DNA of 32,000 nt from Methanobacterium aggregans (GTDB lineage Archaea; Methanobacteriota; Methanobacteria; Methanobacteriales; Methanobacteriaceae). The position numbers were made by a program, and so were the translations under genes. The DNA is taken from the NCBI RefSeq assembly GCF_017874455.1, contig NZ_JAGGLN010000002.1, positions 406,248 to 438,247 of the forward strand, in the 5' to 3' direction. Numbering within the stretch: the first letter of the stretch is position 1; every line of letters starts with the position of its first letter. Under the pieces are notes generated by a model, which was given only the letters and a program-made list of their open reading frames with translations, made no database searches and was not told the origin of the DNA. Below are positions 11,566 to 31,410 of this stretch, piece by piece.

Positions 11566-11578
11566 TAAAATCCGTTTT

Positions 11579-12906: not shown

Positions 12907-13146
12907 AAGGTAATGAGCCTCATTTGCACCAGCATTAAACTCTATACTTGTAACACCATCCATTATATCTTCAAATATCTGCCATAATGTGTCATCATCT
13001 GCGTAGATGCAGAAAACATTTTTATCTTTAAGTGTAACCTTCTCAACACCTTCATAATCATTTTTAAGGTCTTGGTATATTTCATCAGCAGTGACATTAC
13101 TATCTGTTTCAGCTTCTTTTCTAACAGTTTGGTTATTAATATCCAT
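12892..13146 (-). CDS. Small acidic hypothetical protein (84 aa)
   Basis: Strong SD GGAGGA 6-7 nt upstream of the ATG. Asp/Glu-rich with no TM or signal peptide. No family recognised. Confidence 0.55.
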   Translation of the reverse strand: MDINNQTVRKEAETDSNVTADEIYQDLKNDYEGVEKVTLKDKNVFCIYADDDTLWQIFEDIMDGVTSIEFNAGANEAHYLEIIP

Positions 13147-13385
13147 GAATAGTCCTCCGTATCAAATTTCACCAACGAACCCAATGAATGAGTTCAATGA
13201 ATCAATTTTAGTAAGTAGAGTTTATGTTGGTTAAAATAGGTTATTTCATCATTTATGAATTATTTGTTATGAATTATTTTATTTTTAAAACACTGTTAAA
13301 AAAATAGTGAAATTAATGGTTTAATTATTTTTTTAAATTAGGGTTTATTCCCTGGTATTCATTGCTCTTTTACTGATCTCGGGTT

Positions 13386-13817
13386 TTATTCTTCGATCTT
13401 TTCTATGTACATAAGGGGATAGTTAAGCTCTTCAACATACCTCAACCTCACAGTTACCCTTTTACCACCATAGACTGATGAAACCTTAACATCCAACATT
13501 TCACCTGTGAGGGAGATGTAATCATATTCATTTTCAACGGCGTGGAGTGTGTTCCTGTCTATGGTAACCTCCAGTTTTTCTATACATGGCTGGAGTTCCA
13601 TTGCACCCTTTATGGATCTTTCAAGGGATTCAGCACTTTTGATACTGACTGGGGTTCCAACGAACTGATGAAAAAGTGCACCCATGGTTATTGCACCTTC
13701 AAATATTGCCCTTTCCCTTTCTGAAATATTACTGAAGTACTCTGAATCCACATCCACTTTATCCACAGTTTCTGTATTCAAATTCTTTGTATCCAAATTC
13801 TCTGAGTTCTCTTTCAT
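13386..13817 (-). CDS. mptD: Archaeal dihydroneopterin aldolase (methanopterin pathway, MptD-like)
   Basis: The SERERAIFEGAITMGALFHQFVGTPVS...ESLERSIKGAMELQPCIEKLEV core matches my recollection of the MJ0408/COG2098 family (E..aIFE.GI.lGa.yHQF.GTPvs). SD AGGTG upstream. There is an N-terminal low-complexity extension. Confidence 0.6.
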   Translation of the reverse strand: MKENSENLDTKNLNTETVDKVDVDSEYFSNISERERAIFEGAITMGALFHQFVGTPVSIKSAESLERSIKGAMELQPCIEKLEVTIDRNTLHAVENEYDYISLTGEMLDVKVSSVYGGKRVTVRLRYVEELNYPLMYIEKIEE

Positions 13818-13891
13818 TCAAACACCTGATAATATGACATTTAATATGGGATGTATAGTTGGATACACCCAAAAAACGTTAAAACTGAAAT

Positions 13892-14638
13892 CTAAACACC
13901 TAATAAACTGTTCATCCATGACAATCCTGATCCAACAGCATCTGGAAGGGGTTGATAGAAGTATCCTACCACAAGGAGCAATGTGAATAGAACTGTTGCT
14001 GCAAATATCAGGATCTTATCCTCTTTAACAGGATATAAATAGCTCAGTATCGTTCCAACCGCAAAAAAACCAGCCATTATAATGAATGCATATTCAGGGT
14101 TGTTCGGGGGTTTTTTCTCGGTCTTCTCCTGTATTGGATATATCTTACCCTGTTTCGCCTCTATCACCAGCCTTTGAGCTGATGATCCCAGGGGATAACA
14201 TGTTATAAGGAACAGCACTTTTCCCTGTTCCACGGATAATCTGTAGGAAGCTGGAACTATTGTTGAGTTGATAACAGTGTACTCCACGTTACCTATCCCC
14301 GGCCATTCAAGGGTTATGTTGTCTCCTGCCTTAAGCTCGTTGAGCCTGAGAAACGGGGACCCATGAAGGGTCCTGTGACCAAAAAGAACAACCGTTCCAT
14401 AGCCTGGTTTGGAAGATGCAGGTTCATGGTAAACACCATAATTAATGGATTTATTGTTTATGGCCTGATCAACACCTATTTTAGATATTTCAAGGTAAGG
14501 AGTGTCTGAGATGTTCTTGGTTACCTCCTGGGCAGATGCATAGTAATTAACTTCCACGATGCAGTAGAATGAAATTATGAGCAGACCCAGCACCACGAAG
14601 ATGGTTGAAATTTTCATGGTTATTAATATGAAACTCAT
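13892..14638 (-). CDS. Sortase-family transpeptidase with N-terminal anchor and two extra C-terminal TM helices
   Basis: LEISKIGVDQAI...YGTVVLFGHRTLHGSPFLRLNELKAGDNITLEW...VEYTVINSTIV...VLFLITCYPLGSSAQRLVIEAK contains the sortase His (GHR), Cys (ITCYP, the TLxTC-type motif) and Arg (QRLV) in canonical order and spacing. There is an N-terminal TM. C-terminal hydrophobic segments are YAFIIMAGFFAVGTILSYLY and ILIFAATVLFTLLLVVGYFY. Confidence 0.8.
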   Translation of the reverse strand: MSFILITMKISTIFVVLGLLIISFYCIVEVNYYASAQEVTKNISDTPYLEISKIGVDQAINNKSINYGVYHEPASSKPGYGTVVLFGHRTLHGSPFLRLNELKAGDNITLEWPGIGNVEYTVINSTIVPASYRLSVEQGKVLFLITCYPLGSSAQRLVIEAKQGKIYPIQEKTEKKPPNNPEYAFIIMAGFFAVGTILSYLYPVKEDKILIFAATVLFTLLLVVGYFYQPLPDAVGSGLSWMNSLLGV

Positions 14639-14736
14639 CTTTAAGAACCCTTTGATCCTTCATGAAAATGGGCTCATGAACCTTGCAAAAATTTGGGAAA
14701 CAGTGATCAACAAAGATTTCGGTTTTAATTTCAATT

Positions 14737-14783
14737 TATAGATTATAGGTAGGTTATGGAACAAATTAAGTATAGATTATAGG
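14737..14783. repeat. Two copies of a 13-bp direct repeat (tatagattatagg), 34 bp apart, upstream of the sortase gene
   Basis: 14737-14749 and 14771-14783 are identical. They lie about 100-145 bp upstream of the sortase start on the minus strand. They share GATTATAGG with the leader hairpins of the Tyr/Lys-repeat genes. Confidence 0.6.
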
Positions 14784-14874
14784 ATAAAAACTTGAAAAAA
14801 AGTATATCAAAAATAATTTTTTTAAAATTTGAGTTTATAGAGGGATTTATTTAAAAAAAAGGGTTTGAAAGATT

Positions 14875-14914
14875 AAAAAAAATATCCGTACTGACTGTTA
14901 ATGTTAACAGCCAG
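14875..14914 (-). terminator. Hairpin plus T8 tract after the psd-pssA-465aa operon
   Basis: The minus strand after the stop (14929) reads CTGGCTGTTAAcaTTAACAGTCAG (11-bp arms, one mismatch) and then tacggatATTTTTTTT. This is intrinsic-terminator-like and fits oligo-T dependent archaeal termination. Confidence 0.6.
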
Positions 14915-14928
14915 TTTTAGGCCCTTCT

Positions 14929-16319
14929 TCAATTGTAGATGGTTTTGAGTTCACTGATCATCCATGTTGGAGCTGATTGTGTTGGAACAGTGAGCATTGC
15001 ACTATCCATGTTCTGTATTAAGAACGGAGCATCATCCCTTGGAACCTCCAAGAGTATCATGTACTGAGCATCAAGCTCTCCCAGGTTTGACACCCTTTCA
15101 AAGTCAGCAAGTCTCCATCCATAGGAAGTTAGGAGTGAACTAACCTGACCTTGGTTCCATGTTCTAGATGCTGCAGCCTTTAAAAGCTCTTCAACATTGG
15201 TTACCTGAACAGATTTGGAGTATCCAGATCCTGATCCAGCTGAAGAACCATATGCGGATCCTGATCCTGAAGTGGAGTTAGTGTTCGCAGATGCAGATGC
15301 TGCCATTGATGCTGCATATTTTGCCTGTAACTGTGCCTGTGTTAAGTTGGCATCTATAGTTCCACTATCCGTTGCCCTTAAAATTGCCAGGACTGTTGCT
15401 CCACTGATGTTAGGAGTTGTACTCGTATTGGTAGTATTTCCACCACTTGAAGCATTGGTTCTAAGGTACACATCAACTGTGTTTCCCACAGTGACCAATC
15501 CCCCAGCAGCCTGGAGTCTGGATACCAGTATTGGAACTGCAACAGTGTCTGGTGTTTCAACATCCATGTTGGACAGAACACTTGCATCGGCGCTGTTAAC
15601 AATTTGCTGGGCCGCATCAACCTTCATCATCAAATCCTTTTGATTGTCAGAACTTTGATTTCCAGTATCATAGGTTATCATCACCCTCTTGTAGGTGTCC
15701 TTCTTGTTGTTGATCTGCTGGGTTTGATACGTTCTCCATGACGTTGTTGCAGGTCCAAGAACATCCACTGCCAGTACCTGATCCGGAGTAACACCACTAT
15801 CGATCTCAGCTAGTAGTATTTGTTTCTTTGGATCAGATGCTAAACCTCCTTTGAAATAGGAATTAATCTCATTGTACTTCTGCATTTTGGCATCGTTAAG
15901 TGTATCTTGATACGGTGCATAGAACAGGAAGTAGTAACCTACTACAGCAATAACTATGAGTATAACACCAAAGACAGCCGCACCAACCAATGTTTTCTGG
16001 TCATCATCGGGAAGTTTCTTTCCAAAGCCACCACCCCCACCTAAACCTCCTAAACCTTTAGCTTTTTTCTCAGGAGGTCTCAACCTAGGTTTAGAGTCCA
16101 GAGGCTTCGTTTTAGGTCTGGGCATGGGTTTGGGTATTTTTTTGTTGTTAGAAGATTTTTCACCCAAATCACCTGTTTCCTTACCTTTTCCATTGTTCCC
16201 TGATACTTTACCCACCATGTCCTTGAGTCGTCCCCCCATGTCTGACTCGGACTTTTTTCCATTTTTACGGAGATCAGGGGCTTCTTTTTTATCTTTATCC
16301 TTTTTTCCTAGTATTTTAT

Positions 16320-16326
<7 letters not shown>
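14929..16326 (-). CDS. Single-pass membrane protein: Lys/Pro/Gly-rich cytoplasmic tail, TM, extracellular CpaB/SAF-like domain, S/G/T/N-rich linker, C-terminal globular domain
   Basis: A 465-aa ORF. Residues 1-111 are basic and low-complexity (KKDKDKK, KKIPKPMPRPKTKP, GLGGLGGGGGFGKK). The TM covers about residues 112-136 (LVGAAVFGVILIVIAVVGYYFLFY). VAVPILVSRLQAAGGLVTVGNTVDVYL and ATVLAILRA resemble the CpaB/RcpC beta-clip motif (..V.v.....gG.i.pGd.VDV..). The ATG overlaps the pssA stop (ATGTTAG). Confidence 0.75.
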
Positions 16327-17039
<713 letters not shown>

Positions 17040-17082
17040 AATTAAACTCCTTTAAAGTCCTTTTTATGGTTTATATTCTCTT

Positions 17083-17808
17083 TTAATTCATTTCAGGAGT
17101 TATTTTTTCTGGTTTTTCATTTAATTCCATCATGACCTTTTCAACGAGTTCCGCCATGATGGTTTCTCCAGCCTTGGGTTTCTGACCTTCAGCCACCCTA
17201 ACCTCAAATTTTTCATGGGGCACTATGAGGTCTACCCTGGAACCAAATCTTATCATGCCCAGTTTGTCTCCTATTTCAAGTTTATCGCCCACTTGAACAT
17301 ACTGAACTATTCTTCGGGCTATAAAACCTGCTATCTGGATTACTCCCACTTTCCCATAATCTGAATCTATTACTATTAAGTTTTTTTCGTTTTCCTTTTC
17401 AACGTTCTTCCATGCCATCTTAAATTTTCCAGGGCAGTACTTGGTTTTTACAACTTCACCTGAAATTGGTGCCCGCTGTACATGAACATCAAAGGGGGAC
17501 ATGAATGTACTTATACGAATTCCCCTCTCCCCTTCATCTAAAAGATGTTCCATGAGAGGATAATCACAACCAACCACTTCTACCTTATCTATGCGTCCTG
17601 TTAATATCCTTCCATCTGCAGGTGCAACAACAACACCCTCATCAGAAGGTATTTTTCTCTTTGGATCTCTGAAAAACTGCATTAAAAATGCTATGGCTGA
17701 AAACAAGATGAAAGTCACAATAACGTAGCCAAATAAGAAGGGTAAAACTGCTATTGTTAATAATATTCCCACTTTTTTATAGGTTCCTTTCACAAACATT
17801 GTAACCAC
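17083..17808 (-). CDS. psd: Archaetidylserine/phosphatidylserine decarboxylase proenzyme
   Basis: N-terminal TM helices, FMSPFDVHVQRAPISGEV, and GDKLGMIRFGSRVDLIVP containing the G-S autocleavage/pyruvoyl site. The start is GTG 17808 or ATG 17799. Confidence 0.88.
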   Translation of the reverse strand: MVTMFVKGTYKKVGILLTIAVLPFLFGYVIVTFILFSAIAFLMQFFRDPKRKIPSDEGVVVAPADGRILTGRIDKVEVVGCDYPLMEHLLDEGERGIRISTFMSPFDVHVQRAPISGEVVKTKYCPGKFKMAWKNVEKENEKNLIVIDSDYGKVGVIQIAGFIARRIVQYVQVGDKLEIGDKLGMIRFGSRVDLIVPHEKFEVRVAEGQKPKAGETIMAELVEKVMMELNEKPEKITPEMN

Positions 17809-18373
17809 TGATTAATCAAAAAATTGATTATCAAATTATTATTAAACTATTTTATTCTCTATTTTATTCTACTGAACTACTATTTTTACTCAATTATTCT
17901 GTACTACTCCTTTCTGGATCCATTCTAAAGCCTGAAATGTAGCTGAGTTTAGTTAATTGAATATAAATATAAATAGTTGCACTTGGTATGTAACAACCTA
18001 CATAAAACATGTGTCATTACAAACATTTCAATATTTCAAGGGTCCAAACAGAGAATCTGGTAAATATATTCATTTATGAAAGAAAATAATCCCATGATAA
18101 ACACCCATTGTGTGAAAAAAATTTCAGAGAATACCATTTAATATTACGATTTAGTTATTTAATAAACTTTTAAATAGTGCTCCACTTATAAATTAAAACC
18201 ATTGAAATGATTTTTGAATTAACAGATCTCTTGATATAATATATATTGTTTTATCATCATGTAAGTTCAAGTAAGGTAATATTCTAATTATATTTATATT
18301 TCATAACAGTTTATTTAATAAACCAGTACAGTAAATTAATCACAGAAACTTATATGATATGATATATGTGATG

Positions 18374-18392
18374 GAACTTGAAACTCAAGTTC
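18374..18392. promoter_or_regulatory. Perfect 8-bp palindrome GAACTTGA-aac-TCAAGTTC in the psd / mreB-operon divergent intergenic region
   Basis: Read directly at 18374-18381 and 18385-18392, about 240-250 bp upstream of the 18634 ORF. A half-site-like gttcaagt also occurs near 18262-18269. Confidence 0.3.
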
Positions 18393-18633
18393 ATTCAAAA
18401 ACTGTGGTTTTACTACATCATTCATAAATTAACATAAGCATCCTAATTCATAAATAGTATAATATTAATTAAGAAATATTTTGTTTGAATGAATACTTAA
18501 ATGAATAAATTTGTAAATTGAGTGTAGTAAAAAAATTATAGATCGTACAATTTGTAAGTGAATAATTTCTTAATTTCTAAGTAATATTCAAATAAACGTA
18601 AATCTGTACTGAAAATTATTACGCCATGAAGAA

Positions 18634-19272
18634 GTGGTATTGATGATAGAAAATAAGATTAAAACCTTGAGAAAAGCTGCAAAAGTTACTACAATGCAGG
18701 ATTCTGATGAAATATGGTGCGTAATCGCAGGTAACGAAGAAATGGTTAATAACGTTGCATATGCAGCTATAACAGACAAAGAAAGGGTTAAAATCCTCTG
18801 CAGAGAACATATAACCACTAAAGAATCATTCGTAACAAAAAAATTCGACTTCATACTGATCTATGGAGACTTGAATAAAATAAGAGAACTAAGCTGGATT
18901 TGCAAAGAAAACGGTGGAGCTTACATTAAGATAGCACCTTACTACGCTATAAATGAATCTAACCTACTTTTAACAGTAGGACCTGAAAATTCCGTTAAGA
19001 AGTTCATGGGAGACTGTGAAAAGAACCGGGTCAAACTTTCATTTTTACTCGAAGATCAAACAACTGGTTTTATAGAAACTGATGTTTACATAACCAACAT
19101 ACTACCTACTTTTATCAGAAACACAATTGATCCTCTGTTTAAAATAGCAGATGTTGCTCTTTCAACTGTTCTGATATCAACCACTGACGATTACATTAAA
19201 AAAATCAAAGAAATTGCGAAGTTGAACAAGATCTTCGTAATAGAATTCGATAAATTTTTAGAGGAGGACTGA
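18634..19272 (+). CDS. Hypothetical cytoplasmic protein translationally coupled to mreB
   Basis: A 212-aa ORF (GTG 18634 or ATG 18643) with no TM or signal peptide. The alternating hydrophobic/helical pattern suggests an alpha/beta fold. Its last codons contain the mreB SD (GAGGAGG), and its TGA stop is 1 nt from the mreB ATG. Confidence 0.6.
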   Translation: MVLMIENKIKTLRKAAKVTTMQDSDEIWCVIAGNEEMVNNVAYAAITDKERVKILCREHITTKESFVTKKFDFILIYGDLNKIRELSWICKENGGAYIKIAPYYAINESNLLLTVGPENSVKKFMGDCEKNRVKLSFLLEDQTTGFIETDVYITNILPTFIRNTIDPLFKIADVALSTVLISTTDDYIKKIKEIAKLNKIFVIEFDKFLEED

Positions 19273-19273
19273 A

Positions 19274-20350
19274 ATGTTCAATTTATTTGGAAAAAAGGAA
19301 GAAAGTGGAGAAGTAAAGAAAAAAGCATTGACAAGCACTTTGGGGATCGATTTAGGAACCCTGAACACTGTTGTTGCAAAACCATCTGGAGATAAATTCG
19401 ATTTATACAAAATACCCTCAGTGGTAGCTGTTAAAAAAGAAGAGCCAACTTACGTGCTTGCAGTTGGTGAAGAAGCTAAAGCCATGCTCGGAAGAACACC
19501 CGAAGATATCATAGCTGTAAGGCCACTGCGAAAGGGAGTTATAGAAAGCATAGCCCAGGCAGAAGCTCTTCTTGTTTACGCAATGGACAAGGGCTCTGGA
19601 GAGTCCATGGACTCAATAGACAGGATCGTTGTTGGAATTCCTGGAGATGCATCTGAAGTTGAAAAACGTGCAGTTGAGGACATAGGTAAAAAAGCAGGTG
19701 CAAACTACGTTCTTGTAATAAGTGAAGGACTTTCAGCAGCAATAGGTGCAGGCCTTCCAATTGCAGAGGCAGCAGGTACCATGGTCATAGACCTTGGAGC
19801 AGGTTCCAGTGACATCGTTGTAATTTCCCTGGGTGGAATCACAGACATTGAAACCATAAGAAACGGTGGAGATGACATAGACAACAACATAGTTGACAGG
19901 GTAAAAGATCTTTACAACGTTGAAATAGGTATTCACGAAGCTGAAAACGCTAAGATCCAGGTTGGAATGGTTCATTCCAGTGCAGATATGGAGAACACCA
20001 CAACATCAGCCATTGGAAAATGCATGGAAACCAACAAGCCTAAGAAAGTTGAAATAGACTCAAAACTTGTTGCAGACGCTGCAGAACCAATAGTTGTTAA
20101 TTTAATTCAAGCACTAGCTTTGGTACTTGAAAGAATGTCCCCTGAACTCATATCCGGTGTTTACAACAAAACCGTAGTTGTTGGTGGAACATCACAGCTC
20201 CGTGGACTAAAAGACAGGATATACGAGGAAGTTGGAGTTCCTGTGGAAATATCAGACGACCCAATGACCGTTGTTGCTAAAGGTGCTGCAATAGTAGCTG
20301 CAGAACCACGGGCACTTGAACCAGAAGTTCGTTTAAAAGCTATGAAATAA
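19274..20350 (+). CDS. mreB: Actin-like ATPase, MreB family
   Basis: LGIDLGTLNTVV (phosphate 1), AVRPLRKGVIESIAQAEALL, VVGIPGDASEVEKRAVEDIGKKAGANYVLVISEGLSAAIGAGLPI, GTMVIDLGAGSSDIVVISLGGI (phosphate 2), GGDDIDNNIV and VVGGTSQLRGL (adenosine) are collinear with bacterial MreB. There is an N-terminal MFNLFGKK... extension. Confidence 0.88.
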   Translation: MFNLFGKKEESGEVKKKALTSTLGIDLGTLNTVVAKPSGDKFDLYKIPSVVAVKKEEPTYVLAVGEEAKAMLGRTPEDIIAVRPLRKGVIESIAQAEALLVYAMDKGSGESMDSIDRIVVGIPGDASEVEKRAVEDIGKKAGANYVLVISEGLSAAIGAGLPIAEAAGTMVIDLGAGSSDIVVISLGGITDIETIRNGGDDIDNNIVDRVKDLYNVEIGIHEAENAKIQVGMVHSSADMENTTTSAIGKCMETNKPKKVEIDSKLVADAAEPIVVNLIQALALVLERMSPELISGVYNKTVVVGGTSQLRGLKDRIYEEVGVPVEISDDPMTVVAKGAAIVAAEPRALEPEVRLKAMK

Positions 20351-20397
20351 TTATTTTCAATATTTAATTGAAATAATTATTTATTTTATTTATTTTT
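20349..20397 (+). terminator. A/U-rich hairpin plus T-tracts after mreB
   Basis: aattattttcaa-tatttaa-ttgaaataatt (one bulged t) followed by atttattttatttattttt. Confidence 0.4.
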
Positions 20398-20737
20398 AAA
20401 TTTTAGTTGAATATCTTTTTTTAAATTAAAATTATATGGTACTATTGATGAAATTATCAATTTGAAGATTTGAAATTCATCACATCCCAAGTTCATTCTA
20501 TTAGAGGTTACTGAAGTTCGTGCTAAATTTATTTAAACCACTTCTTTTAAACTATTTTAAACAAAGATTTAAACCATGGGACTAAAGCTAATCCCATTAG
20601 AAACTTATTAAGTATTATTAAGTGAAGTTTGAAACTGATCTAAAAAGTGATCTAAACTAAACATCGATCTGAAGGTTGTAATTCATACTGTACATCCTAA
20701 AAGAATGTTGGGATAACTACTAAAAAAGGACAATAAA

Positions 20738-21349
20738 ATGAAGATAGTGGGAATAGATGAAGCAGGAAGGGGATCCGTACTTGGTCCTTTAGTTGTGTGT
20801 GGTGTGGCAGTAGAGGAAGATAGATTAAAGTACCTTGAAAGACTGAGACTAAAGGATTCTAAAAAATTATCTCCAAAACGGAGAACCATACTTTCAAGGA
20901 AGATAAGGAAAATAGCAGAATGTTACCCTGTTAATATAACTGCCCAGGATATAGACATCCTGCGGTCGAAGGATGTTAACCTCAATGAAATTGAAAAAAT
21001 AGCAATTAAAAAAATCATAGGAGAATCAGAACCAGATATTGCCATAATTGATTCCATGGATGTTAAACCTGAGAGACTCAAGGCAGAGGTTGAGGGTTAC
21101 AGGGAAAATCTTGAGGTTGTGGCAGAACACAGGGCCGATGATACCTATGTGATTGTTTCAGCAGCATCCATCATTGCAAAGGTTGAAAGAGACACTGCAA
21201 TATCCAATATCAGAGAAGAGTTTCCAGATGTTGGATCCGGTTATCCAAGCGACCCTACAACGATTGCATTTCTTGAAAAAATACCCTACGAGGAAATGCC
21301 AGATTTTGTCAGAAAATCCTGGTCAACCGTGTCAAAAAGGAAGAAATGA
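20738..21349 (+). CDS. rnhB: Ribonuclease HII
   Basis: MKIVGIDEAGRGSVLGPLVVCGV...LKDSKKLS...DSMD...ADDTYVIVSAASIIAKVERD are the canonical RNase HII active-site motifs. Confidence 0.93.
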   Translation: MKIVGIDEAGRGSVLGPLVVCGVAVEEDRLKYLERLRLKDSKKLSPKRRTILSRKIRKIAECYPVNITAQDIDILRSKDVNLNEIEKIAIKKIIGESEPDIAIIDSMDVKPERLKAEVEGYRENLEVVAEHRADDTYVIVSAASIIAKVERDTAISNIREEFPDVGSGYPSDPTTIAFLEKIPYEEMPDFVRKSWSTVSKRKK

Positions 21350-21358
21350 GGACCAACC

Positions 21359-22198
21359 ATGATATACGAATTCTTTACCAGCGGTTTTGGAACCATAATG
21401 GAGATGTTCAAAAGCGGAGGAGTAATAACCTACATAATAACCATAATCGGTTTGTACGGAATCATTTATTCCTTTGAGAAGATCCACTATCTGCGTAAGA
21501 TGTCCAAGGTGGATCTGCCCCAGATAATGGGGGTTGTGAATGATACCATGGAAAATGGAGGTTCACTCGAGGCACTGCGCTCAATAGGAAAGTATCAAAA
21601 CCCCTTATCCAAAATAATCTCCGAAGCCCTTAAGATCGGTTACAGGAGCAAGAGTGAAGTTGAAGATGCAATGGAACGAGTTTTCATAGTTGAAATGGGC
21701 AGAATGACCAAGGGACTTGACAGCATCCGAACCATAATTGAAATCGCACCTCTACTTGGACTTATCGGAACTGTTCTTGGTATGTGGTACACCTTCAAGG
21801 CACTGGGTGTGAATGCCAACCCCACAGCCATGGCAGAAGGTATATACATAGCACTCATAACAACCATAGCAGGTCTTGCCGTTGCCATAATCATATTACC
21901 CCTTTACTCTTACATCAACGGTAAAATAGAGGGCGAACTGGATAAAATCGAGATAGCCAAAAAGATGACCAACTGGCGAACTGCAGAAATGAAGATAAAA
22001 GTGGATTCAGGAATAGATAACGCTGTTCATGCACTTAAGGAATCCAATGGCGTGGTTGAGGTCCGAAAACTTCTTGATTCAGAAGCTAATATTTGGATAT
22101 CCATTAACCCCAACATGCTTGAAAAGAGCATAAACAACATAATAAGGGAAAAATGTAACTGTAACGTGAAAATCGTTGAAAGTAAACTTAGACAATGA
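21359..22198 (+). CDS. MotA/TolQ/ExbB-family proton-channel protein with about 75-aa C-terminal extension
   Basis: The N-terminal TM is GVITYIITIIGLYGIIY. The core IAPLLGLIGTVLGMWYTFKAL...GIYIALITTIAGLAVAIIILP is the MotA_ExbB channel signature. Residues about 203-279 (MKIKVDSGIDNAVHALKESNGVVEVRKL...CNCNVKIVE) form an extra soluble domain. Confidence 0.85.
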   Translation: MIYEFFTSGFGTIMEMFKSGGVITYIITIIGLYGIIYSFEKIHYLRKMSKVDLPQIMGVVNDTMENGGSLEALRSIGKYQNPLSKIISEALKIGYRSKSEVEDAMERVFIVEMGRMTKGLDSIRTIIEIAPLLGLIGTVLGMWYTFKALGVNANPTAMAEGIYIALITTIAGLAVAIIILPLYSYINGKIEGELDKIEIAKKMTNWRTAEMKIKVDSGIDNAVHALKESNGVVEVRKLLDSEANIWISINPNMLEKSINNIIREKCNCNVKIVESKLRQ

Positions 22199-22306
22199 TC
22201 TGGAATTTAAATAAAAAAAACAGGGAATAGATGGGATCTTAAGTCGAATAAAAGTGAAGAGATAATTGGAACGGTCTAACATCAAAATAATGAGGAGGAA
22301 CCCTAC

Positions 22307-22705
22307 ATGACCCTTGATACTCAAAGATACAGGAATAAAATGCGGCAAAAACAGGCCCGAGTTAATCTAGTTCCACTTATAGATGTTATTTTCACCATAC
22401 TCATATTTTTGATGGTTACAAGCAGTTTTCAGGCTGCTGCAGATACAAGTTCCTCTTCAGGTAAGCCCGAGGTGATCCAGACAAATGGAACCTCAGAATA
22501 TTATTTAATACCTGTTTCAGGCCTTAAGACTGTCACAGTCAACGGTGTGGATATGTCAAAGGATATAAGAAACAGTGCCATTGCTGTTCATACAGATGTC
22601 ATAGATTACGGGGAGATAATAATAAAATCCAAGGAAGGAACCATAATAATCACATCACCCTCAAATGTACCTACTGATAAAGCTGTGAGCATTCCTCAAT
22701 CATGA
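22307..22705 (+). CDS. ExbD/TolR-family protein
   Basis: SD GAGGAGG upstream. ARVNLVPLIDVIFTILIFLMVTSSF is the single TM with the conserved Asp of ExbD/TolR. It is followed by an extracytoplasmic beta-rich domain of about 85 aa. Confidence 0.82.
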   Translation: MTLDTQRYRNKMRQKQARVNLVPLIDVIFTILIFLMVTSSFQAAADTSSSSGKPEVIQTNGTSEYYLIPVSGLKTVTVNGVDMSKDIRNSAIAVHTDVIDYGEIIIKSKEGTIIITSPSNVPTDKAVSIPQS

Positions 22706-22879
22706 TATCTTGAGTTTGAATTGGGTTAATTGGAATAGTTTATTAAACCCCAGACCCAAATAAATTTTATTGATTTAATTTTGAAGAATCCCATGAAGAT
22801 TCCATCTGAAGCATTTAAATCCAATTAAAGTCATTGAAATGATAATTAAAACGTTAAAAAAGTTTAGAGGGTGATATTA

Positions 22880-23485
22880 GTGTACCTTGGAAGAATAGTT
22901 GCAGTTGGAAGTACTGAAAATGGAAAATTCGCAGCATACAGAGTTTCAAGCCGTTCATTTCCAAACAGAATGGCAAAATCCTTCAAAAACCGAGTTTCAA
23001 TAGTTCCAACAGAAGGAAATGAAAAGGATGTCTTTCAAAATCCGTATATAGCCTACAACTGTATTAGGATAGTTGGAGATGTTGCAGTGGTTACCAATGG
23101 TTCTCACACAGATGTTATAGCAGAAAAAATAGCGTCTGGAATGAACGTAAGGGATTCAATTGCCCTATCACTCATTGCAATGGACTACGAGAAGGATGAT
23201 TACAACACACCAAGGATAGCATGTGCAGTATCTCCAGATGAAGGTTCGTACATAGGTATAGTGACCCATGACGATGTAATCGTTGAAAAGGTTCCAGAGG
23301 GAAAATCAGTGTACATATCCACCTATGAACAGACCAGACCCGCATACGTTGACTTTGAAGCAGAGGATGCAGAGGATGCAGCCCAGTTCATAATGGATGG
23401 GGGTAAATTTGCAGAGTTCACAAACCCTGTGACTTCAACTGCAGCTTTCATGAAGGATGGGGAATGGAAAATAAGTTCCATATAA
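22880..23485 (+). CDS. purO: Archaeal IMP cyclohydrolase
   Basis: (V)[29 protein letters not shown]...VTNGSHTD matches the PurO family N-terminus. The track ORF starts at GTG 22871; GTG 22880 is better placed after GAGGGTGA. Confidence 0.88.
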
Positions 23486-23597: not shown

Positions 23598-24359
23598 ATG
23601 GAATTGAAACTCATAGGCATACCAGGTATACCTATTTTAAAGGAAGGAAATAATATTGCAGATATCATATTAAATGCTCTGGATGAAGAAAGCCTTGAAA
23701 TCTGTGACGGTGACGTTCTGGTTATAGCAGAAACCATCGTATCAAAATCTGAGGGAAATATAATTGATCTTAAGAGTTTAGAGCCAAGTGAACTTGCATT
23801 TGAGCTTTCAGAGAAAACTGGGAAAACTCCTGAGATTGCAGAGGCCATAATAAATGAATCCAAGGATATAATAAAGGTTGGTCCTGATTTTATAATATCA
23901 GAAACAAAACACGGTTTCATATGTGCCAATGCAGGAATAGATGAATCCAATGTTGGTGAGGGACTTGCAACTCCAATGCCTGCAGATCCAGATGGGAGTG
24001 CAGGTAATATAAGGCAGAAAATTGAGAAAATCACAGGACATGAGGTTGCAGTTATAATTTCAGATACTCAGGGAAGGGCCTTCCGTGAAGGGGCTATTGG
24101 AACGGCAATTGGTATCTCTGGAATGTTTCCACTGTGGGACAGGCGAGGAGAACAAGATCTTTACGGTAGAGAACTTGAAACCACAAGTATAGCTGTTGCA
24201 GATGAACTTGCAGCCGCAGCTTCAATACTAATGGGACAGGCCAATGAGGGAATTCCTGTGGTTATAATCCGTGGTGTTGATTACTTCAAAAAGTTGAGAA
24301 CTGATTCTGCAAGCGTAAGATCACTCCTGAGACCTAAGAAGTACGATGTTTTCAGATGA
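23598..24359 (+). CDS. cofE: Coenzyme F420-0:L-glutamate ligase
   Basis: [58 protein letters not shown], and [21 protein letters not shown] are CofE family motifs. Confidence 0.9.
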
Positions 24360-24426: not shown

Positions 24427-25332
24427 ATGATAACCATACTTTCAGGTGGAACAGGCACCCCCAAGCTCATACAGGGAATTATGCAGATTGTAAACCCTGA
24501 AGAGATTACTGTGATTGTTAACACCCTTGAAAACTCTTATTTTTCAGGTGTTTACGTTGCAGCAGACCTAGACACAGTTATGTACACCCTTGCAGGTCTT
24601 ATAAATGAGGAAACATGGTATGGAATTAAAGGTGATACATTTATTACACATGAAACTTTAAAGGAGATCAAATGTCCTGAAACCCTTAAAATTGGGGATA
24701 AAGACAGGGCAACAAAGATACAGAAAACCCTCCTCATGAAAAAATATTCCCTTTCAAGGGCCGTTGACATACAAAGAACCGCTCTGGGCATTAAATCTCG
24801 TATTATTCCCATGAGCAACCAGAATTCCAATATAACCATTGTGACAGATGAGGGAGATATGGAATTTCATGAGTTCCTCATTGAAAGATCAGGAAAGCCT
24901 GAAGTTCTGGATATTCAATACAACACGGTTGAACCATCACCGGGACTTGTTGAATCCATTGAAGAAGCAGATATGGTTGTTTTAGGACCTTCAAATCCAG
25001 TTACATCCATAAAACCCATAATATCCATGGATGGTGTTGTTGATGCACTTAAAAAAGCTCATGTTACTGCAGTTTCTCCAATAATTGGAGGTGCTCCTGT
25101 AAGTGGTCCTGCAGCGAAGTTTATGAGTGCACTTGGATATGAGGTTTCATGTTCTGGTGTTGCTTCTCTTTATGGTGACTTTTTAGACAGATTTATTATT
25201 GATGTTGAAGATGGTAAGTATAAGGAAAAAATAGAAAGACTAATATCGGATGTTGTTGTAACAAACACAAACATGAGAAACATCGGAAATAAATTGATGT
25301 TAGCCAGAAGTATTTTGGGTGAAATTTTATGA
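24427..25332 (+). CDS. cofD: 2-phospho-L-lactate transferase (LPPG:FO)
   Basis: [18 protein letters not shown]..., [23 protein letters not shown], and [18 protein letters not shown] are CofD signatures. Confidence 0.92.
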
Positions 25333-26093
25333 TTCAGATGACTTTAATTCAAATTGATAACTACGGCCCATGGACCGTGACTCCCACACCAAGGGCAGAG
25401 GCAGATCTTCAGATACTGCAATCAGAGCTATATGCAGACCTTCAAAGACAATTTGCAGCAAAAGGAGGTCTCGTTTTCTTCACCCGGTTTGATAATATGC
25501 TAGCGGTGACAAACGGCGTTGATATGGAAGACCACCGCAGAATCCAGAAATCCATAGGAAACAGGTACCCCATAACAGTCAGTATGGGCGTTGCAACAGC
25601 AGAAACACCCTATGATGCACAGAGCAAGGCAACTGCAGCTCTTCAGAACTATGGAGGGGCTCAGTCCGAGGAGCGAAAGGAGATACTCGCAATAGACAGC
25701 CTCGTTAAGAAGGAAGAAAGCTTTGTTCAAATTGCACACATCGACATAAATGGAATTACAGATACACTTACAGATATAATGCCTGCATATGATACTAGTT
25801 TTATTGTGAATCGTGTTCAACACTTTTTAATGAAAAAATTGATTGAAAAAGGTTCTCTTTTGTTCTTCATAGGCGGAGACAACTTCATGTCCCCCTGTAA
25901 TGGATTAACACCAGAGGGACTTCTCAAGATCATAGAAGAAATTAAGGACGAAATAAACATAGCACTTAAAGCTGGTGTTGGAAAGGCTCCAAGCGCTGAA
26001 AAAGCTGCAAATCTTGCAGATCTTGGACTTGAGGAAATAAGGGGCGGTTTCACCTACAACCTAGTCCATGTTATGAAGGAAGCCCAAGGATAA
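25329..26093 (+). CDS. gch3: GTP cyclohydrolase III (archaeal, FAPy-forming)
   Basis: [38 protein letters not shown]...FFIGGDNFM matches the MJ0145-type family. The ATG overlaps the cofD stop (ATGA). Confidence 0.9.
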
Positions 26094-26403
26094 GAATTGG
26101 ATATGTTCAGGTGAAAGGTTGAAAAATACCTTAAATTCCTTTTTTACTCTTTTATTAATTTTTGTTTATGCCAAAAGTCTAATTAAAAATTGAATAAAAT
26201 GAAAATGATGTGTAAAGAAAGATAAATAAAACTGATTAACACGATTGGTTAAAAGTTAAAAGGATATTTTCTGAATTATATTCAAAAATGTATTCACTTG
26301 ATAACTGCAGTCTTTCCTCAGGTAAGTCTTAACTAAAAAAAGGATTGTGAATCTTTTTAATTTAAATGATCCTTGAATTTATTATTTTAAGTCAGGTGGT
26401 TTT

Positions 26404-27138
26404 ATTGAAGTACTAGCACCCATGGCAGGTATAAGTAATGGTAGATTCTGCAGAAAAATGTCTTCATACGGCTTTGACATGCTTACACTTGGAGGTTACA
26501 GTGCAGATGATATCTCTGCAGAGGCCGGACGTAAAATACTCCAGAGAGGCAGACCAGAATTTGACATGGACCCATCCAACCTTCCCTCCCACATAGAGAA
26601 AGAGATAAAAATTATCAGAGAGGGAAATCCTTGGGAAGGTCTTGTATCTGTTAACCTCAGGGCAGCTTCTCCAGAACCCATGATACCCATCTCAAAGCTG
26701 GACTTTGTGGATGTTGTTGAGATCAATGCCCACTGCAGACAGCCAGAGCTGGTTGAAGCAGGCTGTGGTCAGAGCTTACTAATGGATCCAGAGGTACTTC
26801 ATGAATTCACATCCCATGTTGTGAAGAAGGGAAAAAGCAGTGTTTCTGTTAAGTTAAGGGCAAATGTTCATGGTGTTGATGATCTAGAAATTGCGGGTGC
26901 TGTTGAAGATGCAGGTGCAGATTATCTCCATCTTGATGCAATGAAACCTGGATTTAACTCTGCAGATTACGAACTGGTGCGTTCCATTAAGGATGCTACA
27001 GACATATTTCTCATAGGCAACAATTCCATCGTTGATCTGGAGTCTGCAAGGAAGATGATGGCTGCGGGTGCAGACGGAATATCCATTGCAAGGGCTGCAA
27101 TATCTGGAATTCTCAAATTCGATCTGTGGGATATATAA
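26404..27138 (+). CDS. nifR3/Dus-like FMN TIM-barrel protein (uncharacterised methanogen subfamily)
   Basis: (IEVLAP)[13 protein letters not shown]..., [11 protein letters not shown] (the INxGCP-like active-site loop of Dus/nifR3 proteins), and LHLDAM...IGNNSI...[13 protein letters not shown] at the end of the TIM barrel. The track ORF starts at ATG 26422. The frame is open from 26380, and AGGTGG (26394-26399) sits at normal SD spacing from in-frame ATT 26404. Confidence 0.7.
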
Positions 27139-27244
27139 GAAATGGGGTCAAAAATAAATAGGAACCAGTGTTAATTAAAATATATATAAATGATCCATCA
27201 AATTAAGAATATATATTCATTATAATTTATTGAAAGGTGGTTGC

Positions 27245-28840
27245 ATGTCGTTTATAGAATTGGAAAATGTTACTAAAACCTTCGATGGTGTAAAAGTTCT
27301 AAAAAATCTGAGCATGACCATAAACGAGGGAAAAGTTCTGGGTATTCTTGGTAGAAGTGGTTCCGGTAAATCCGTACTGATAAACATGCTCAGGGGAATG
27401 AAGGAGTACAAACCCGACGAAGGCAGGATCTTTTACACGGTGGCTCTATGTCCAGGGTGTATGAGGGTTGAAGCCCCATCCAAGGCTGGAACTAAGTGTG
27501 GATGTGGATGTGAATTTGGACTTGAAAAGGTTGATTTCTGGAACTCTGACAGAAAACTCTTTGCAGCCATTAAAAGAAGGATTTCAATAATGCTGCAGAG
27601 GACCTTTGCACTTTATGAGGATGACACAGTTATAGACAACGTTATAAAATCCATTGAAGGCCATGAATACGAGGAAAGCACCTACATGGCAATAGACCTC
27701 CTTGAAATGGCCCAGATGACCCACAGGATCACCCACATAGCCAGGGATCTGAGTGGTGGAGAGAAGCAAAGGGTCGTGCTTGCAAGGCAGATAGCAAAGG
27801 AGCCTATGCTTTTCCTTGCAGACGAACCAACAGGTACACTTGACCCTAAAACAGCTGAACTCATACACGAGGCTCTTATTGAAGGTGTTAAGGATAAGGG
27901 AACCACCATGGTTATAACATCCCACTGGCCAGAGGTTATGAAAAAACTCTCAAACTACGTTATCTGGCTTGAAAAGGGAGAAATAATTGAGGAAGGCAAA
28001 CCAGAAGAAGTTGTGAAGAAATTCCTTGAACAGGTACCTTTACCTGAGAAGAAGGAAGTTTACCAGACAGGAGGCCCAATAATCCAGATGGAAGGGGTCA
28101 AAAAACATTACTACTCCATAGAAAGGGGAGTTGTCAAGGCAGTTGATGGAATAGACCTCAACGTTAACGACAGTGAAATATTTGGAATTGTTGGATTAAG
28201 CGGTGCAGGTAAAACAACCCTTTCAAGGATACTCTATGGATTAACAGAACCCAGCAGTGGTAAGATAGAAGTTAAACTCGGGGAGAACTGGGTTGATATG
28301 ACTGAAAAAGGCCCCTTTGGAAGGGGTCGAGTGAAACCTTACCTTGGAATACTGCACCAGGAGTACAGTTTGTACCCCCACAGGAACGTGCTTGGAAACC
28401 TTACAGAGGCAATAAGCCTGGAACTTCCAGCAGAATTTGCACATATGAAAGCACTGTACGTTCTCAAAGCAGTTGGATTTGATGAAGATTACGCTAAAAA
28501 TATATTGAAGAAATATCCTGATGAACTGAGTGGTGGAGAGCGTCACAGAGTTGCCCTTGCACAGGTGCTCATAAGGGAACCTAAGATAATCATTCTGGAT
28601 GAACCAACAGGTACCATGGATCCAATAACAAGGGTTCAGGTAACAGATTCTATAAGAAAGGCACGGGATGAGCTTAGTCAGACTTTCCTGATAATATCCC
28701 ACGATATGGACTTTGTTCTTGATGTGTGTGACAGAGCAGCACTTATGCGTGGTGGGAAAATTCTGAAAGAGGGAGATCCTCATTCAATTGTGGAAGACCT
28801 CACACCAACTGAGAAGGAAAAGATGCTTACGGAGGAATAG
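27245..28840 (+). CDS. atwA: Methyl-coenzyme M reductase system component A2 (tandem ABC ATPase)
   Basis: Two ABC cassettes are present. Walker A motifs are GRSGSGKS and GLSGAGKT. Signature motifs are LSGGEKQR and LSGGERHR. Walker B motifs are [12 protein letters not shown] and [13 protein letters not shown] Cys-rich insert [21 protein letters not shown] (27449-27511) lies in cassette 1. The length of about 531 aa from ATG 27245 (AGGTGG SD) fits component A2. Confidence 0.9.
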
Positions 28841-28841
28841 A

Positions 28842-29318
28842 ATGGTATGGGAAGATGCACCATCACACGTATGTAGGGGAGGAGACAAGAGGGCGTTGGC
28901 TTTCTGCTGTCCGCCTGTAAAACCCTGTCCAATATTGTACGCACTTGAAGATACTAAGATCACACCTCAAGAGTACATAGAGATCAAGGAGAAGTTTGGA
29001 GAAAAAAGCAGGCTAGGCCAGGGTGAAGGAACCTGTTTCGGTTCACTTGTATGGTGCTGTAAACCATCAAAACCATGCCCCTTAAGGGATATGGTTATGC
29101 GCAGAATAGACATGGATGTTGACGAGTACATGAAGCTTAAAAAGGAACTTTCAGAGGAACTCGTTGGTAGCGAGGGATCAACACTCCAAGAAAGTGTGAA
29201 GGCACTCTCTGAAACCTTCAACATTCCAGAGGATGAAGCCCAGAAGGTCCTTGCAGAATGTGGCAACGATGTGAAAACAGCTGCCAAAATACTCAGAATG
29301 AAGAATCTGGAGTTATAA
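28842..29318 (+). CDS. Methanogenesis marker domain 9 protein (8-Cys, two [FW]CCxxxKPCP[IL] motifs) with C-terminal UBA/NAC-like helical domain
   Basis: [31 protein letters not shown]...[19 protein letters not shown] has Cys at residues 11, 22, 23, 29, 65, 72, 73 and 79. The C-terminus [29 protein letters not shown] is UBA/NAC/EF-Ts-N-like. The ATG lies 1 nt after the atwA stop, with GGAGGA upstream. The track ORF start at 28788 overlaps atwA and is rejected. Confidence 0.8.
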
Positions 29319-29319
29319 G

Positions 29320-29946
29320 ATGGGATGGACTCCACTCTTCCTTGAAATGCACCATAAAAATGTTTTAGTGGTGGGTGCAGGAGAGGTGGGAGAAAGGAGA
29401 GCCAGAAGATTTCTTGAAGCAGGTGCAAGTGTTGTGGTGCTGGGAAGCATTGCACCCCGTGAGATCCTTGAACTTGGAGCATCCCTAGAACCAATGGAGG
29501 ATGCTGCAAAATGGGTTGAATGGGCCGACCTTGTGGTTACAGCAACCCCTGACACTGATTTAAACCAGATGATTGCAGATCTTGCAGGAATTAAGCTGGT
29601 CAACAGGGCCGATGCACCACAAAATGGTAACTTCATAGTTCCATCATCTTTTTTCATAGGCGATGTACAGATATGCATATTCACAGGCGGTAAAAGCCCC
29701 CTCATGTCCAAGGAATTAAGAAAAAAGATACAAAAAGTAATAAAAACTGAGGATGTGCTGCAGCTCGAGCTTCAGGACTTTGCAAGGAACATCCTAAAAA
29801 AACGGGTTGATGATCAGAAAGCCCGTAAAAAGTATCTTTATCAAATATTAAATGATGAGAAGGTTAAAAAGTTCCTGGAAGATGAAGATCTTCAGGGGGC
29901 CCAGGTTTACGTTGAATGTTTACTATCTGGATTGAAAGAAAATTGA
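29320..29946 (+). CDS. sirC: Precorrin-2 dehydrogenase / sirohydrochlorin ferrochelatase-type (siroheme synthase N-terminal domain family)
   Basis: [29 protein letters not shown] is a Rossmann motif. [32 protein letters not shown] and [21 protein letters not shown] match the CysG-N/Met8/SirC pattern. The ATG lies 1 nt after the preceding stop. Confidence 0.85.
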
Positions 29947-30216: not shown

Positions 30217-31410
30217 GTGATCCTAAATATCAGAGTCGACCATAAAACTGCAAGCATCGGTACAATGGAGAGATCAGCACATAAACTTGACGTTGCGTTC
30301 CAGGAAATTCAGAATAAGTACCCTGTAGAGGAACACCTCCAAATAAAGACCTGCAACAGAACAGAATTTTACCTGGTGCTTAAGGACTGCAGTATGGAAG
30401 TGGAATGTGATGATTTCGTGGTTGAAACTGATGAAAAAGCACTTGAACATCTTTTAAGACTTGCATCCGGATTGGAATCCATGATAGTAGGTGAAGACCA
30501 GATACTTGGCCAGATAAAGGATGCCCGTAAACGAAGTATTAAGGAAGGATGCTGCGGCAGAGTTTTAAACACTGTTTTTACCAAGGCAGTTCATGTTGGC
30601 CAGTCCGTTCGTAAAAAAACCCGGATAAACGAGGGATCCGTGTCCATAGGATCTGCAGCAGTTGACCTTGCAGAGAAGGTTCATGGAAACCTTAAATGTA
30701 AGAAGGTCCTGGTTGTGGGTGCTGGTAAGATGGGAACCCTTGTTGCCAAGGCCCTGGTTGAAAAAAATCTTAAAGCAATCGTTGTTGCAAACAGAACCCA
30801 TGACAGGGCAGTTTGCCTTGCAAGGGAGCTGGGTGGTTCAGCCATACACTTCAACAAACTCGCTGAAGCAATGAAAGATGCAGATGTTGTTATAAGTGCA
30901 ACAGGAGCCCCACACCCAATTTTAACCTATGAAAAGGTGAAGGAAACTGTGCCTCCAGAAAATCTCAGGAACATGGTGATGGTGGACATTGCAAACCCCC
31001 GTGACATAGAGGAGAGGGTTTCAGAACTGGGTGTTAAACTTTTCAACATAGATGATCTTCGTGGAGTTGCAGATGAAAGCCTGAAGATGCGTGAAGCAGA
31101 AGCAGTGCGTGCAGAGAAAATAGTTGAAGAGGAACTGGAACTTCTCCATAGATCACTGAAGCGCATGGAAGTTGAACCATTGATATCCAGTATTCGTGCT
31201 AATGCCGAGGAAATAAGGGTTAAAGAAACCAGGAAAGCTCTTAAAATTCTTGGAGATATGAATGGTAATGAGAAGGTGGTTGATGACCTTACAAAGGTCC
31301 TGGTCAAACACATCTCCTACGATATGATTCAAAACCTGAAGCATGCAGCTGAAATGGATGAAAAAGAGGTTATAAAGGCTGCAGAAACAATTTTTAAGGG
31401 TAAAAATTGA
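30217..31410 (+). CDS. hemA: Glutamyl-tRNA reductase
   Basis: GTG start after [19 protein letters not shown] (catalytic Cys), [17 protein letters not shown] and [17 protein letters not shown] (NADPH Rossmann) are followed by a C-terminal dimerisation helix region. Confidence 0.93.

Follow-up and report, generated by a model that had tools for sequence, protein, structure and literature searches.

The Dus-like barrel and marker-9 genes around atwA in Methanobacterium aggregans as a split form of a fused methanogen protein, with a possible place in tetrahydromethanopterin biosynthesis

In Methanobacterium aggregans, a gene for a dihydrouridine synthase (Dus)-like barrel protein and the gene for the eight-cysteine methanogenesis marker 9 protein (mmp9) lie on either side of atwA, which encodes component A2 of the methyl-coenzyme M reductase (MCR) activation system. 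The stretch of DNA that was analysed, hereafter the window, comprises 32,000 nucleotides (contig NZ_JAGGLN010000002.1, positions 406,248 to 438,247), and its genes were assigned by profile searches against NCBIfam and Pfam, with scores read against the curated cutoffs. As judged from sequence comparison, the barrel and marker-9 genes are a true split of a protein that is fused in Methanosarcinales and Methanomicrobiales. As for what the pair does, we put at about even chances the reading in which it forms a two-subunit flavin and Cys-rich oxidoreductase of tetrahydromethanopterin (H4MPT) biosynthesis that class II methanogens make as one polypeptide. Both families are already curated, the split/fusion relation is found in the family descriptions and the proteins carry NCBI annotations; the feature itself is therefore known, and it is only the functional lead that is new.

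The barrel open reading frame (26377/26404-27138) belongs to TIGR00736, the MJ0144 family of Dus-like proteins, which it matches with 262.7 bits (cutoff 218.7, E 2.6e-78) over profile positions 1-230 of 231. The match to the Pfam Dus family (PF01207) is partial, with 67.7 bits over positions 54-218 of 311, and the protein falls far under the cutoffs of the Dus equivalogs (61.4 bits versus 293.3 for DusB, and 36.6 versus 395 for DusC). The original prediction of a Dus-like TIM barrel at this site is borne out. The C-terminal helical tRNA-binding domain of Dus enzymes is absent, the 244-residue protein stopping 12 residues past the last barrel motif. When the protein is aligned with DusB and DusC, the Cys of its AHC motif lines up with the catalytic Cys of their GCP sequence, and its VSVKLR, LH and IGNNS stretches fall on the corresponding Dus motifs, such that the K, H, NN and R positions are kept. 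In Dus enzymes, these motifs bind flavin mononucleotide (FMN) and substrate. The nearest barrel folds are those of T. thermophilus Dus, followed by pig dihydropyrimidine dehydrogenase (DPD) and the dihydroorotate dehydrogenases (DHOD). The protein is thus best described as a Dus/DHOD-type TIM barrel that retains the Dus catalytic Cys and is predicted to bind FMN. It shares the Dus-type barrel and the aligned catalytic positions with the structurally characterized enzymes (PDB 3b0p, 4yco, 6ei9), and it differs from them in being paired with an eight-Cys domain and in its genomic context of cofactor biosynthesis. The MJ0144 barrel family is also known as methanogenesis marker m25, or arCOG04853 (Borrel et al., supplement description); the published tables that include the barrel under this name have no entry for marker 9 itself.

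The second gene scores 186.7 bits against TIGR03277, the marker-9 family (cutoff 96.2, E 9e-56), with residues 2-109 covering profile positions 1-108 of 109, as had been expected of the reading frame at 28842, and its product is 100% identical to the NCBI-annotated M. aggregans protein. All eight of the family's Cys residues are present (C11, C22, C23, C29, C65, C72, C73 and C79), with little or no variation at these positions among 18-40 diverse sequences. They are arranged as two C-x(6-10)-CC-x5-C repeats, each then followed by Pro. The eight-Cys core with two motifs that had been described for this family is accordingly right in its cysteines and off by one residue in its spacing, the motif being [FW]CCxxxKPCP[IL], with three variable positions rather than two. 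The core is all-helical in the AlphaFold model, with the Cys residues in loops and a predicted local distance difference test score (pLDDT) of 80-97. A sequence search of the PDB gave no match covering the marker-9 domain, and Foldseek found no PDB fold relative of the core, all hits having E > 1. The Cys pattern is compatible with two iron-sulfur (Fe-S) or two zinc sites, and we regard the core as a predicted metal or Fe-S module. Past the core, the protein continues into a tail with weak Pfam matches to UBA/TS-N (E 0.0036) and UBA_HYPK (E 0.02), which local Foldseek comparison places with the UBA domains of Tap, p47, EF-Ts and NAC (root-mean-square deviation 0.9-3.2 A over 34-48 residues). 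This UBA-like tail occurs only in the standalone marker-9 proteins of Methanobacteriaceae; the fused forms and the 114-aa standalone forms are without it (alignment A3).

The relation between the two proteins is seen in their homologues. Among 1.8 billion representative proteins, 93 relatives of marker 9 were found, some standalone (114-183 aa) and others fused (322-391 aa), with the TIGR03277 domain at the C-terminus of the latter. In the fused proteins, the N-terminal barrel matches TIGR00736 best of all families, with scores of 105-187 bits that are under the cutoff and far above the 22-55 bits obtained with DusB. The named fused proteins come from Methanosarcina, Methanolobus, Methanomethylovorans, Methanimicrococcus, Methanothrix, Methanocrinis, Methanolinea and Methanoregula. 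Against the Methanosarcina fusion (MSKOL_2771), the window barrel shows 38.8% identity over 237 aa (E 1e-40), and the marker-9 protein shows 47% identity over 116 aa; the domains are the same and in the same order, and the catalytic AHCRQ motif and the eight Cys are common to both. What sets the window apart is that there are two genes with atwA between them, that the linker helix of ~25 residues is missing and that a UBA-like tail has been gained on marker 9. The split point lies within the inter-domain linker, the window proteins ending and beginning on either side of the fusion's linker helix (alignment A3). The AlphaFold model of the fusion has a pLDDT of 94 and a predicted template modelling score of 0.92 across both domains, from which rigid packing of one domain on the other is predicted. 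Moreover, a Methanosphaera-type contig (L177:6130-7486) carries the barrel gene followed directly by the marker-9 gene, with a gap of 127 nt and no atwA, in what is otherwise the same gene block as in the window. The common barrel subfamily, the fusion model and the Methanosphaera adjacency together uphold the original prediction that the two genes are separated halves of a known fusion and should act together, and with it the expectation that the barrel of fused homologues would be of the same subfamily as the 26404 gene. In the split form, the two products would presumably make up a physical complex.

The functional lead comes from the genes that accompany the fused form. Scanning metagenomes with a divergent fused protein as seed yielded 80 loci at 38-97% identity, and 61 of these, having at least 1.2 kb of downstream sequence, were informative. 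A CitG-like gene stands directly downstream of the fused gene in 47 of the 61, often overlapping it; the series continues to a DUF447 gene in 38 of 50 loci, and through DUF447 to the dihydromethanopterin reductase gene DmrX in 15 of 42. Upon clustering at 70% identity, the CitG-like gene is directly downstream in 15 of the 19 informative clusters; in one more (L098), CitG-like and DUF447 genes are adjacent on the opposite strand. In Methanosarcina, in Methanoregula and on a Methanothrix-type contig, a CitG-family gene overlaps the fused gene and is in turn followed by DUF447, and the Methanosarcina gene that comes next scores 409.8 bits against TIGR02700, the DmrX family. The DUF447 neighbour belongs to a family of solved structure (2nr4, 2iml, 2ptf), which we take, from 2nr4, to be FMN-binding. 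More generally, the pair recurs among genes of coenzyme biosynthesis, namely cofE, cofD, arfA, sirC and hemA in the window, and cofD or cfb genes at the fused loci. The gene cofD is directly upstream of the fused gene in 7 loci (L155, L158, L159, L168, L170, L171, L174), in most of which DmrX follows DUF447. In another lineage, that of the Methanomicrobiales-type loci, the fused gene/CitG-like/DUF447 operon has the F430 genes cfbA, E, D and B immediately upstream in divergent orientation (11 loci; the cfb-neighbour loci are listed as L151, L160-L166, L169, L172, L176 and L084).

These partners point toward H4MPT by way of the methylotrophs, in which orf7, annotated as a triphosphoribosyl-dephospho-CoA synthase, is found beside mch in the mch-orf5-orf7 cluster of H4MPT-linked one-carbon (C1) genes. 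We take orf7 to be the CitG-like gene and orf19 to be DUF447, and mutants in either, from a screen of 2005, reportedly lack dephospho-H4MPT. The barrel family (marker m25), moreover, is reported to be co-localized with the H4MPT enzyme Ftr in a non-methanogen lineage. The cofactor methanofuran can be set apart through Methanimicrococcus, which has lost methanofuran biosynthesis and kept that of H4MPT; its retention of the barrel-marker-9 fusion argues against a methanofuran role.

From these patterns we infer a pathway, a metal content and a reaction for the pair. Barrel and marker 9 would be the two subunits of one oxidoreductase, in which the marker-9 module packs on the barrel and would most likely carry Fe-S clusters (or zinc) for feeding or gating electrons, with the CitG-like ribosyl-transferase homologue, the DUF447 protein and DmrX as probable partners. 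As to the reaction, our preferred guess is that ferredoxin drives a reduction within the side-chain part of the pathway, such as the conversion of the ribofuranosyl to the ribityl group on the aminobenzene riboside intermediate, a step for which, to our knowledge, no enzyme has been described. In Dus-type chemistry, FMNH2 would deliver a hydride to a conjugated C=C bond and a Cys would supply the proton, and this would suit the reduction of a quinone-methide-like form of the ribofuranosyl-aminobenzene intermediate. The full proposal is that the pair is a missing methanogen-type, ferredoxin-driven methanopterin reductase, acting for example on the ribofuranosyl-aminobenzene, that joins a Dus-like barrel to a new eight-Cys Fe-S fold, that it works as one module with the CitG-like ribosyl-transferase, the DUF447 flavoprotein and DmrX, and that it has been split in Methanobacteriaceae. 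Taken as a whole, this is a tentative proposal, and we would sooner expect it to fail in some part than to hold throughout.

The more general notion of a flavin barrel with a Cys-rich metal or Fe-S module serving as a redox enzyme is plausible on the strength of the motifs, and it has precedents. DPD combines an FMN barrel (domain IV) with a C-terminal domain V bearing two [4Fe-4S] clusters, and DHOD-B combines PyrD with PyrK. The likeness to these systems lies in the Dus/DHOD-type FMN barrel, in a Cys as general acid and in a Cys-rich module for electron input that follows the barrel on its C-terminal side. For marker 9, however, no similarity to ferredoxin-like domains could be detected in sequence or fold, and its CC-containing motifs are unlike the CxxCxxCxxxCP of those domains; the likeness to DPD is one of motifs and fold analogy. 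DmrX itself (MJ0208 family; TIGR02700), an iron-sulfur flavoprotein of a family found mainly in methanogens, has the FMN plus Fe-S design that is proposed here for the pair. It shares a cluster with the fused gene in many class II methanogens; it is absent from the window, and its fold, a flavodoxin-like AfpA with a ferredoxin domain, is unrelated to that of the pair.

Should this assignment hold, a missing step would be supplied in the biosynthesis of an essential C1 carrier, a pathway that may offer a target for methane-mitigation inhibitors, and marker 9 would represent a metal-binding fold not seen before. Enzymes are still lacking for several steps of methanopterin biosynthesis, and marker 9 and the MJ0144 barrel both belong to those signature proteins of methanogens that have yet to be assigned a function. 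The class II methanogen operon of barrel-marker 9, CitG-like gene, DUF447 and DmrX offers a testable lead on both counts.

A number of observations weigh against placing the pair in H4MPT biosynthesis. The CitG-like, DUF447 and DmrX genes are not beside the pair in the window's own lineage, and the pathway link is consequently one that is transferred from the fused orthologues. Three clusters of fused proteins are without a CitG neighbour, including Methanothrix-like loci that lie beside fpo genes. Several genes of the 2005 H4MPT screen were later reassigned to methylofuran, and the placing of orf7 and orf19 in H4MPT rather than methylofuran biosynthesis is tentative. Archaeoglobus and methylotrophic bacteria make H4MPT as well; with marker 9 described as restricted to methanogens, it cannot serve a universal step of the pathway. 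Lastly, in Methanotrichaceae (Methanothrix, Methanocrinis) the barrel of the fusion is degenerate, its APMAG, AHCRQ-loop and NNS motifs having been deleted or replaced, and 11 of 14 fused sequences are without a TIGR00736 match. The marker-9 half of these same proteins is among the best-conserved members of its family, and the CitG-like/DUF447 operon is kept (locus L085). That the barrel decays where marker 9 is conserved indicates that marker 9 cannot be just an electron wire to the barrel flavin; it has a further role, and may act with the DUF447 flavoprotein.

The original prediction had attached a different meaning to the locus, namely that the placement of the two genes around atwA points to MCR activation, maturation or F430 handling, in which they would supply low-potential electrons or a redox modification together with A2. 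We consider this unlikely. It is true that the gene between them encodes a canonical A2 and meets marker 9 across a single nucleotide, that the barrel-atwA-mmp9 order is kept in ~70 loci of Methanobacterium and Methanobrevibacter, that marker 9 is followed tightly by sirC, which makes the F430 precursor sirohydrochlorin, that the cfb genes of F430 biosynthesis flank the fused operon in the Methanomicrobiales-type loci mentioned above and that marker 9 is described as methanogen-specific. The identity of A2 is likewise clear. The atwA product scores 895.7 bits against TIGR03269 (cutoff 517.1) and matches PDB 8s7v chain K end to end (680 bits, 531 aa), a chain deposited under the name OpuCA that we have taken as A2 of the M. 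maripaludis activation complex. Given this full-length match, we rejected the possibility that the window gene is the "AtwA-like" paralogue of Adam et al.

The wider genomic record does not sustain a specific tie between the pair and A2, however. A scan of a genome collection with a diverse marker-9 alignment was evaluated for its best 80 loci, all of which are from Methanobacteriaceae, and among these a block of nine genes, purO-cofE-cofD-arfA-barrel-atwA-mmp9-sirC-hemA, is syntenic in Methanobacterium and Methanobrevibacter. Since the whole block is conserved, the adjacency of atwA carries no specific signal. The coupling of atwA to mmp9 is loose in most loci, the median gap being 123 nt; the gap is no longer than 15 nt in 27 of 74 loci and longer than 500 nt in 14. 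Between the barrel gene and atwA the median is 158 nt (65 loci). Between mmp9 and sirC, by contrast, it is 16 nt, with 15 nt or less in 37 of 76. The tightest neighbour of marker 9 is sirC, which in the window starts 1 nt after the marker-9 stop. The Methanosphaera block, in which atwA is missing, suggests that atwA was either inserted in the Methanobacterium/Methanobrevibacter line or lost in Methanosphaera. A true atwA is found within 5 kb of none of the 80 fused loci, the weak matches of 24-30% near some of them being generic ABC ATPases, and the loci of four other standalone marker-9 lineages have no atwA, barrel or CitG-like neighbour. The predicted linkage to atwA in other genomes is thus real in Methanobacteriaceae loci (Methanobacterium, Methanobrevibacter and one relative) and is lacking in Methanosphaera, in the fused loci and in the other standalone contexts. 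One fused gene, on contig L083, lies 1.8 kb downstream of mcrBDCGA, but PCNA and TFS genes lie between them on the opposite strand, and the contig is a single AT-rich, Methanosarcinales-like one; we have discounted it as a link to MCR.

The biochemical record is in accord with this. The purified, active MCR activation complex consists of McrC, Mmp7, Mmp17, Mmp3, A2 and a DUF2098 protein, and the A2 operon of M. acetivorans holds Mmp5, 6, 17, 7, 3 and 15; neither marker 9 nor the barrel occurs among the complex subunits, in the supplementary tables or in the A2 operon (Nature 2025, PMC12176620). The window has in common with that complex only the A2 gene lying between the two halves. Linkage confined to one family and absence from the published complex and operon leave the proposed role in MCR activation, maturation or F430 handling unsupported, and lead us to view atwA between the two genes as a lineage-specific arrangement within a block of cofactor genes rather than as functional coupling to MCR activation. 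There is a useful negative here, in that adjacency to atwA should not be taken as evidence for such a role. A further point counts against F430 handling, in that we know of no missing reductase in the CfbA-E pathway. Separately, AtwA has a Cys-rich insertion, CPGC...CGCGC, at residues 69-89 of its first ABC domain (27449-27511), part of which aligns with the M. maripaludis A2 of PDB 8s7v (CPHC...CEC). From its sequence, this insertion may bind metal, which would have a bearing on the redox sensitivity reported for A2.

Beyond methanogens, the distribution of marker 9 has a bearing on two further alternatives. The TIGR03277 family is described as found only in methanogens, and the strong named matches are indeed all from methanogens; more distant eight-Cys domains (E 1e-15 to 1e-4) were nonetheless detected in a Thermoprotei metagenome-assembled genome (MAG), in an Aenigmarchaeota MAG and on contigs that we call DPANN-like or virus-like from their gene content. 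One distant homologue has a CopG/RHH-like C-terminal match of 27.2 bits, just below the Pfam cutoff of 28. Most of the distant domains are N-terminal in proteins of 210-240 aa and two are embedded in proteins of 1650-1749 aa, while one homologue is interrupted by an intein with a LAGLIDADG domain. Occurrences of this kind outside methanogens, with their CopG-like tail and intein, leave room for a nucleic-acid-related or regulatory role.

One such role would be that of an RNA dihydrouridine synthase-like enzyme peculiar to methanogens, with marker 9 as a zinc module replacing the helical tRNA-binding domain of Dus. The closest solved relatives of the barrel by sequence and fold are indeed DusB, DusC and T. 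thermophilus Dus, the barrel keeps their catalytic Cys, marker 9 sits in the fusion at exactly the place of the Dus helical RNA-binding domain, and the distant non-methanogen domains, including the one with a sub-threshold CopG/RHH-like match, suggest nucleic-acid-related functions. Operonic and often overlapping coupling to CitG-like, DUF447 and DmrX genes would not be expected for a tRNA-modification enzyme, however; the helical domain is absent, TIGR00736 is distinct from the canonical Dus families, and the degenerate barrel of Methanotrichaceae, alongside a conserved marker 9, fits poorly with an enzyme of this type. We regard the Dus reading, too, as improbable.

Another alternative has been raised in the literature, where m25 is described as of unknown function and possibly F420-related, and as co-localized with Ftr and an F420-dependent NADP oxidoreductase, and with an F420H2 oxidase, in two non-methanogen lineages (Adam et al., 2022, supplement). 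The pair would on that account be an F420-linked redox enzyme of energy or C1 metabolism, and the cofD and cofE neighbours in the window, as well as the cofD/cofE neighbours in 7 fused loci, could be cited in favour. The products of cofD and cofE make F420, though, and do not use it; the most consistent and tightest partners are the CitG-like, DUF447 and DmrX genes; and profile searches of the window proteins detected no F420-binding domain. An F420-linked function of this kind strikes us as quite doubtful. Least probable is that marker 9 is a metal- or redox-sensing regulator with the barrel as an associated sensor or scaffold, an idea that could draw on the old COG4008 label of "predicted metal-binding transcription factor", on the CopG/RHH-like C-terminus noted above, on the conservation of marker 9 where the barrel decays and on the UBA-like tail as a means of protein contacts, but that runs up against profile searches finding no DNA-binding domain in methanogen marker-9 proteins, the fusion of marker 9 in most lineages to an enzyme-like barrel with an intact catalytic motif, and operon partners that are enzymes.

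The start of the barrel gene merits comment. Position 26404 is an ATT, a non-standard start codon, and the first ATG comes only at 26422. Across 66 orthologous loci, the six codons ahead of that ATG encode a conserved I-E/K-V-L-A-P with synonymous variation, and the codon at the start position is ATT in 46 of the 66 and ATG or TTG in 10. A Shine-Dalgarno-like site (GGAGG/GGAGTG/AGGTG-like) lies 4-7 nt upstream of the start in orthologous loci, a stop codon directly precedes the ATT in some of them (L024, L060, L064), and the LAPMAG stretch of the window barrel aligns with the fused proteins. On account of the conserved upstream residues, the Shine-Dalgarno-like site, the preceding stops and the LAPMAG alignment, the gene very probably starts at the ATT of 26404. 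The conservation of an ATT start in turn suggests deliberately low or regulated translation.

The features of the locus are collected in the table. The three genes of interest lie where the original prediction had placed them, and its 1-nt junctions were read correctly. The atwA stop TAG (28838-28840) is separated by one base from the marker-9 ATG at 28842, and the marker-9 stop TAA (29316-29318) is separated by one base from the sirC ATG at 29320. The barrel gene is joined to atwA less closely, and from the AT-rich spacer between them we would expect the barrel to be transcribed separately from atwA-mmp9-sirC. In that spacer there is probably a promoter belonging to atwA, along with its ribosome-binding site, GAAAGGTGG ahead of the ATG at 27245. 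An alternative in-frame TTG for atwA is present at 27230.

Table. Features of the conserved cofactor-gene block in the M. aggregans window
Feature	Position	Strand	Evidence
purO	22871-23485	+	NCBIfam/Pfam matches
cofE (F420 biosynthesis)	23598-24359	+	NCBIfam/Pfam matches
cofD (F420 biosynthesis)	24427-25332	+	NCBIfam/Pfam matches
arfA, GTP cyclohydrolase IIa/III (riboflavin biosynthesis)	25329-26093	+	NCBIfam/Pfam matches
AT-rich gap of 310 nt, arfA to barrel gene			
Shine-Dalgarno-like AGGTGG, 4 nt upstream of the barrel-gene ATT	26394..26399	+	Sequence reading
Barrel gene, TIGR00736, 244 aa from ATT	26404..27138	+	TIGR00736, 262.7 bits
AT-rich spacer of 106 nt, barrel gene/atwA	27139..27244	+	Sequence reading
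atwA, canonical component A2, ABC-type ATPase	27245..28840	+	TIGR03269, 895.7 bits
Marker-9 gene	28842..29318	+	TIGR03277, 186.7 bits
Marker-9 core, residues 1-110	28842..29171	+	TIGR03277; invariant Cys columns
UBA-like three-helix tail of marker-9 protein (putative), residues ~115-158	29184..29318	+	Weak Pfam, Foldseek
sirC-like precorrin-2 dehydrogenase gene	29320..29946	+	cysG_Nterm, 81.4 bits; NAD_binding_7
hemA, glutamyl-tRNA reductase, downstream end of conserved block	30217..31410	+	TIGR01035, 371.6 bits

Elsewhere in the window, an archaeal-type dihydroneopterin aldolase gene (PF04038, 141 bits) is found on the minus strand at 13386-13817. We take it to be MptD-like and hence of the pterin branch of methanopterin biosynthesis; it lies upstream of the barrel gene, and the 12.6 kb between the two is too great a distance to count as linkage. 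No tRNA or Rfam family was found anywhere in the window. The region from 2803 to 22705 otherwise contains ordinary Methanobacterium genes, among them those for TYW1, the succinyl-CoA ligase beta subunit, subunits of 2-oxoglutarate:ferredoxin oxidoreductase, and archaetidylserine synthase and decarboxylase, together with a sortase-like gene, an MreB-like actin, RNase HII and an ExbB/ExbD-like pair.

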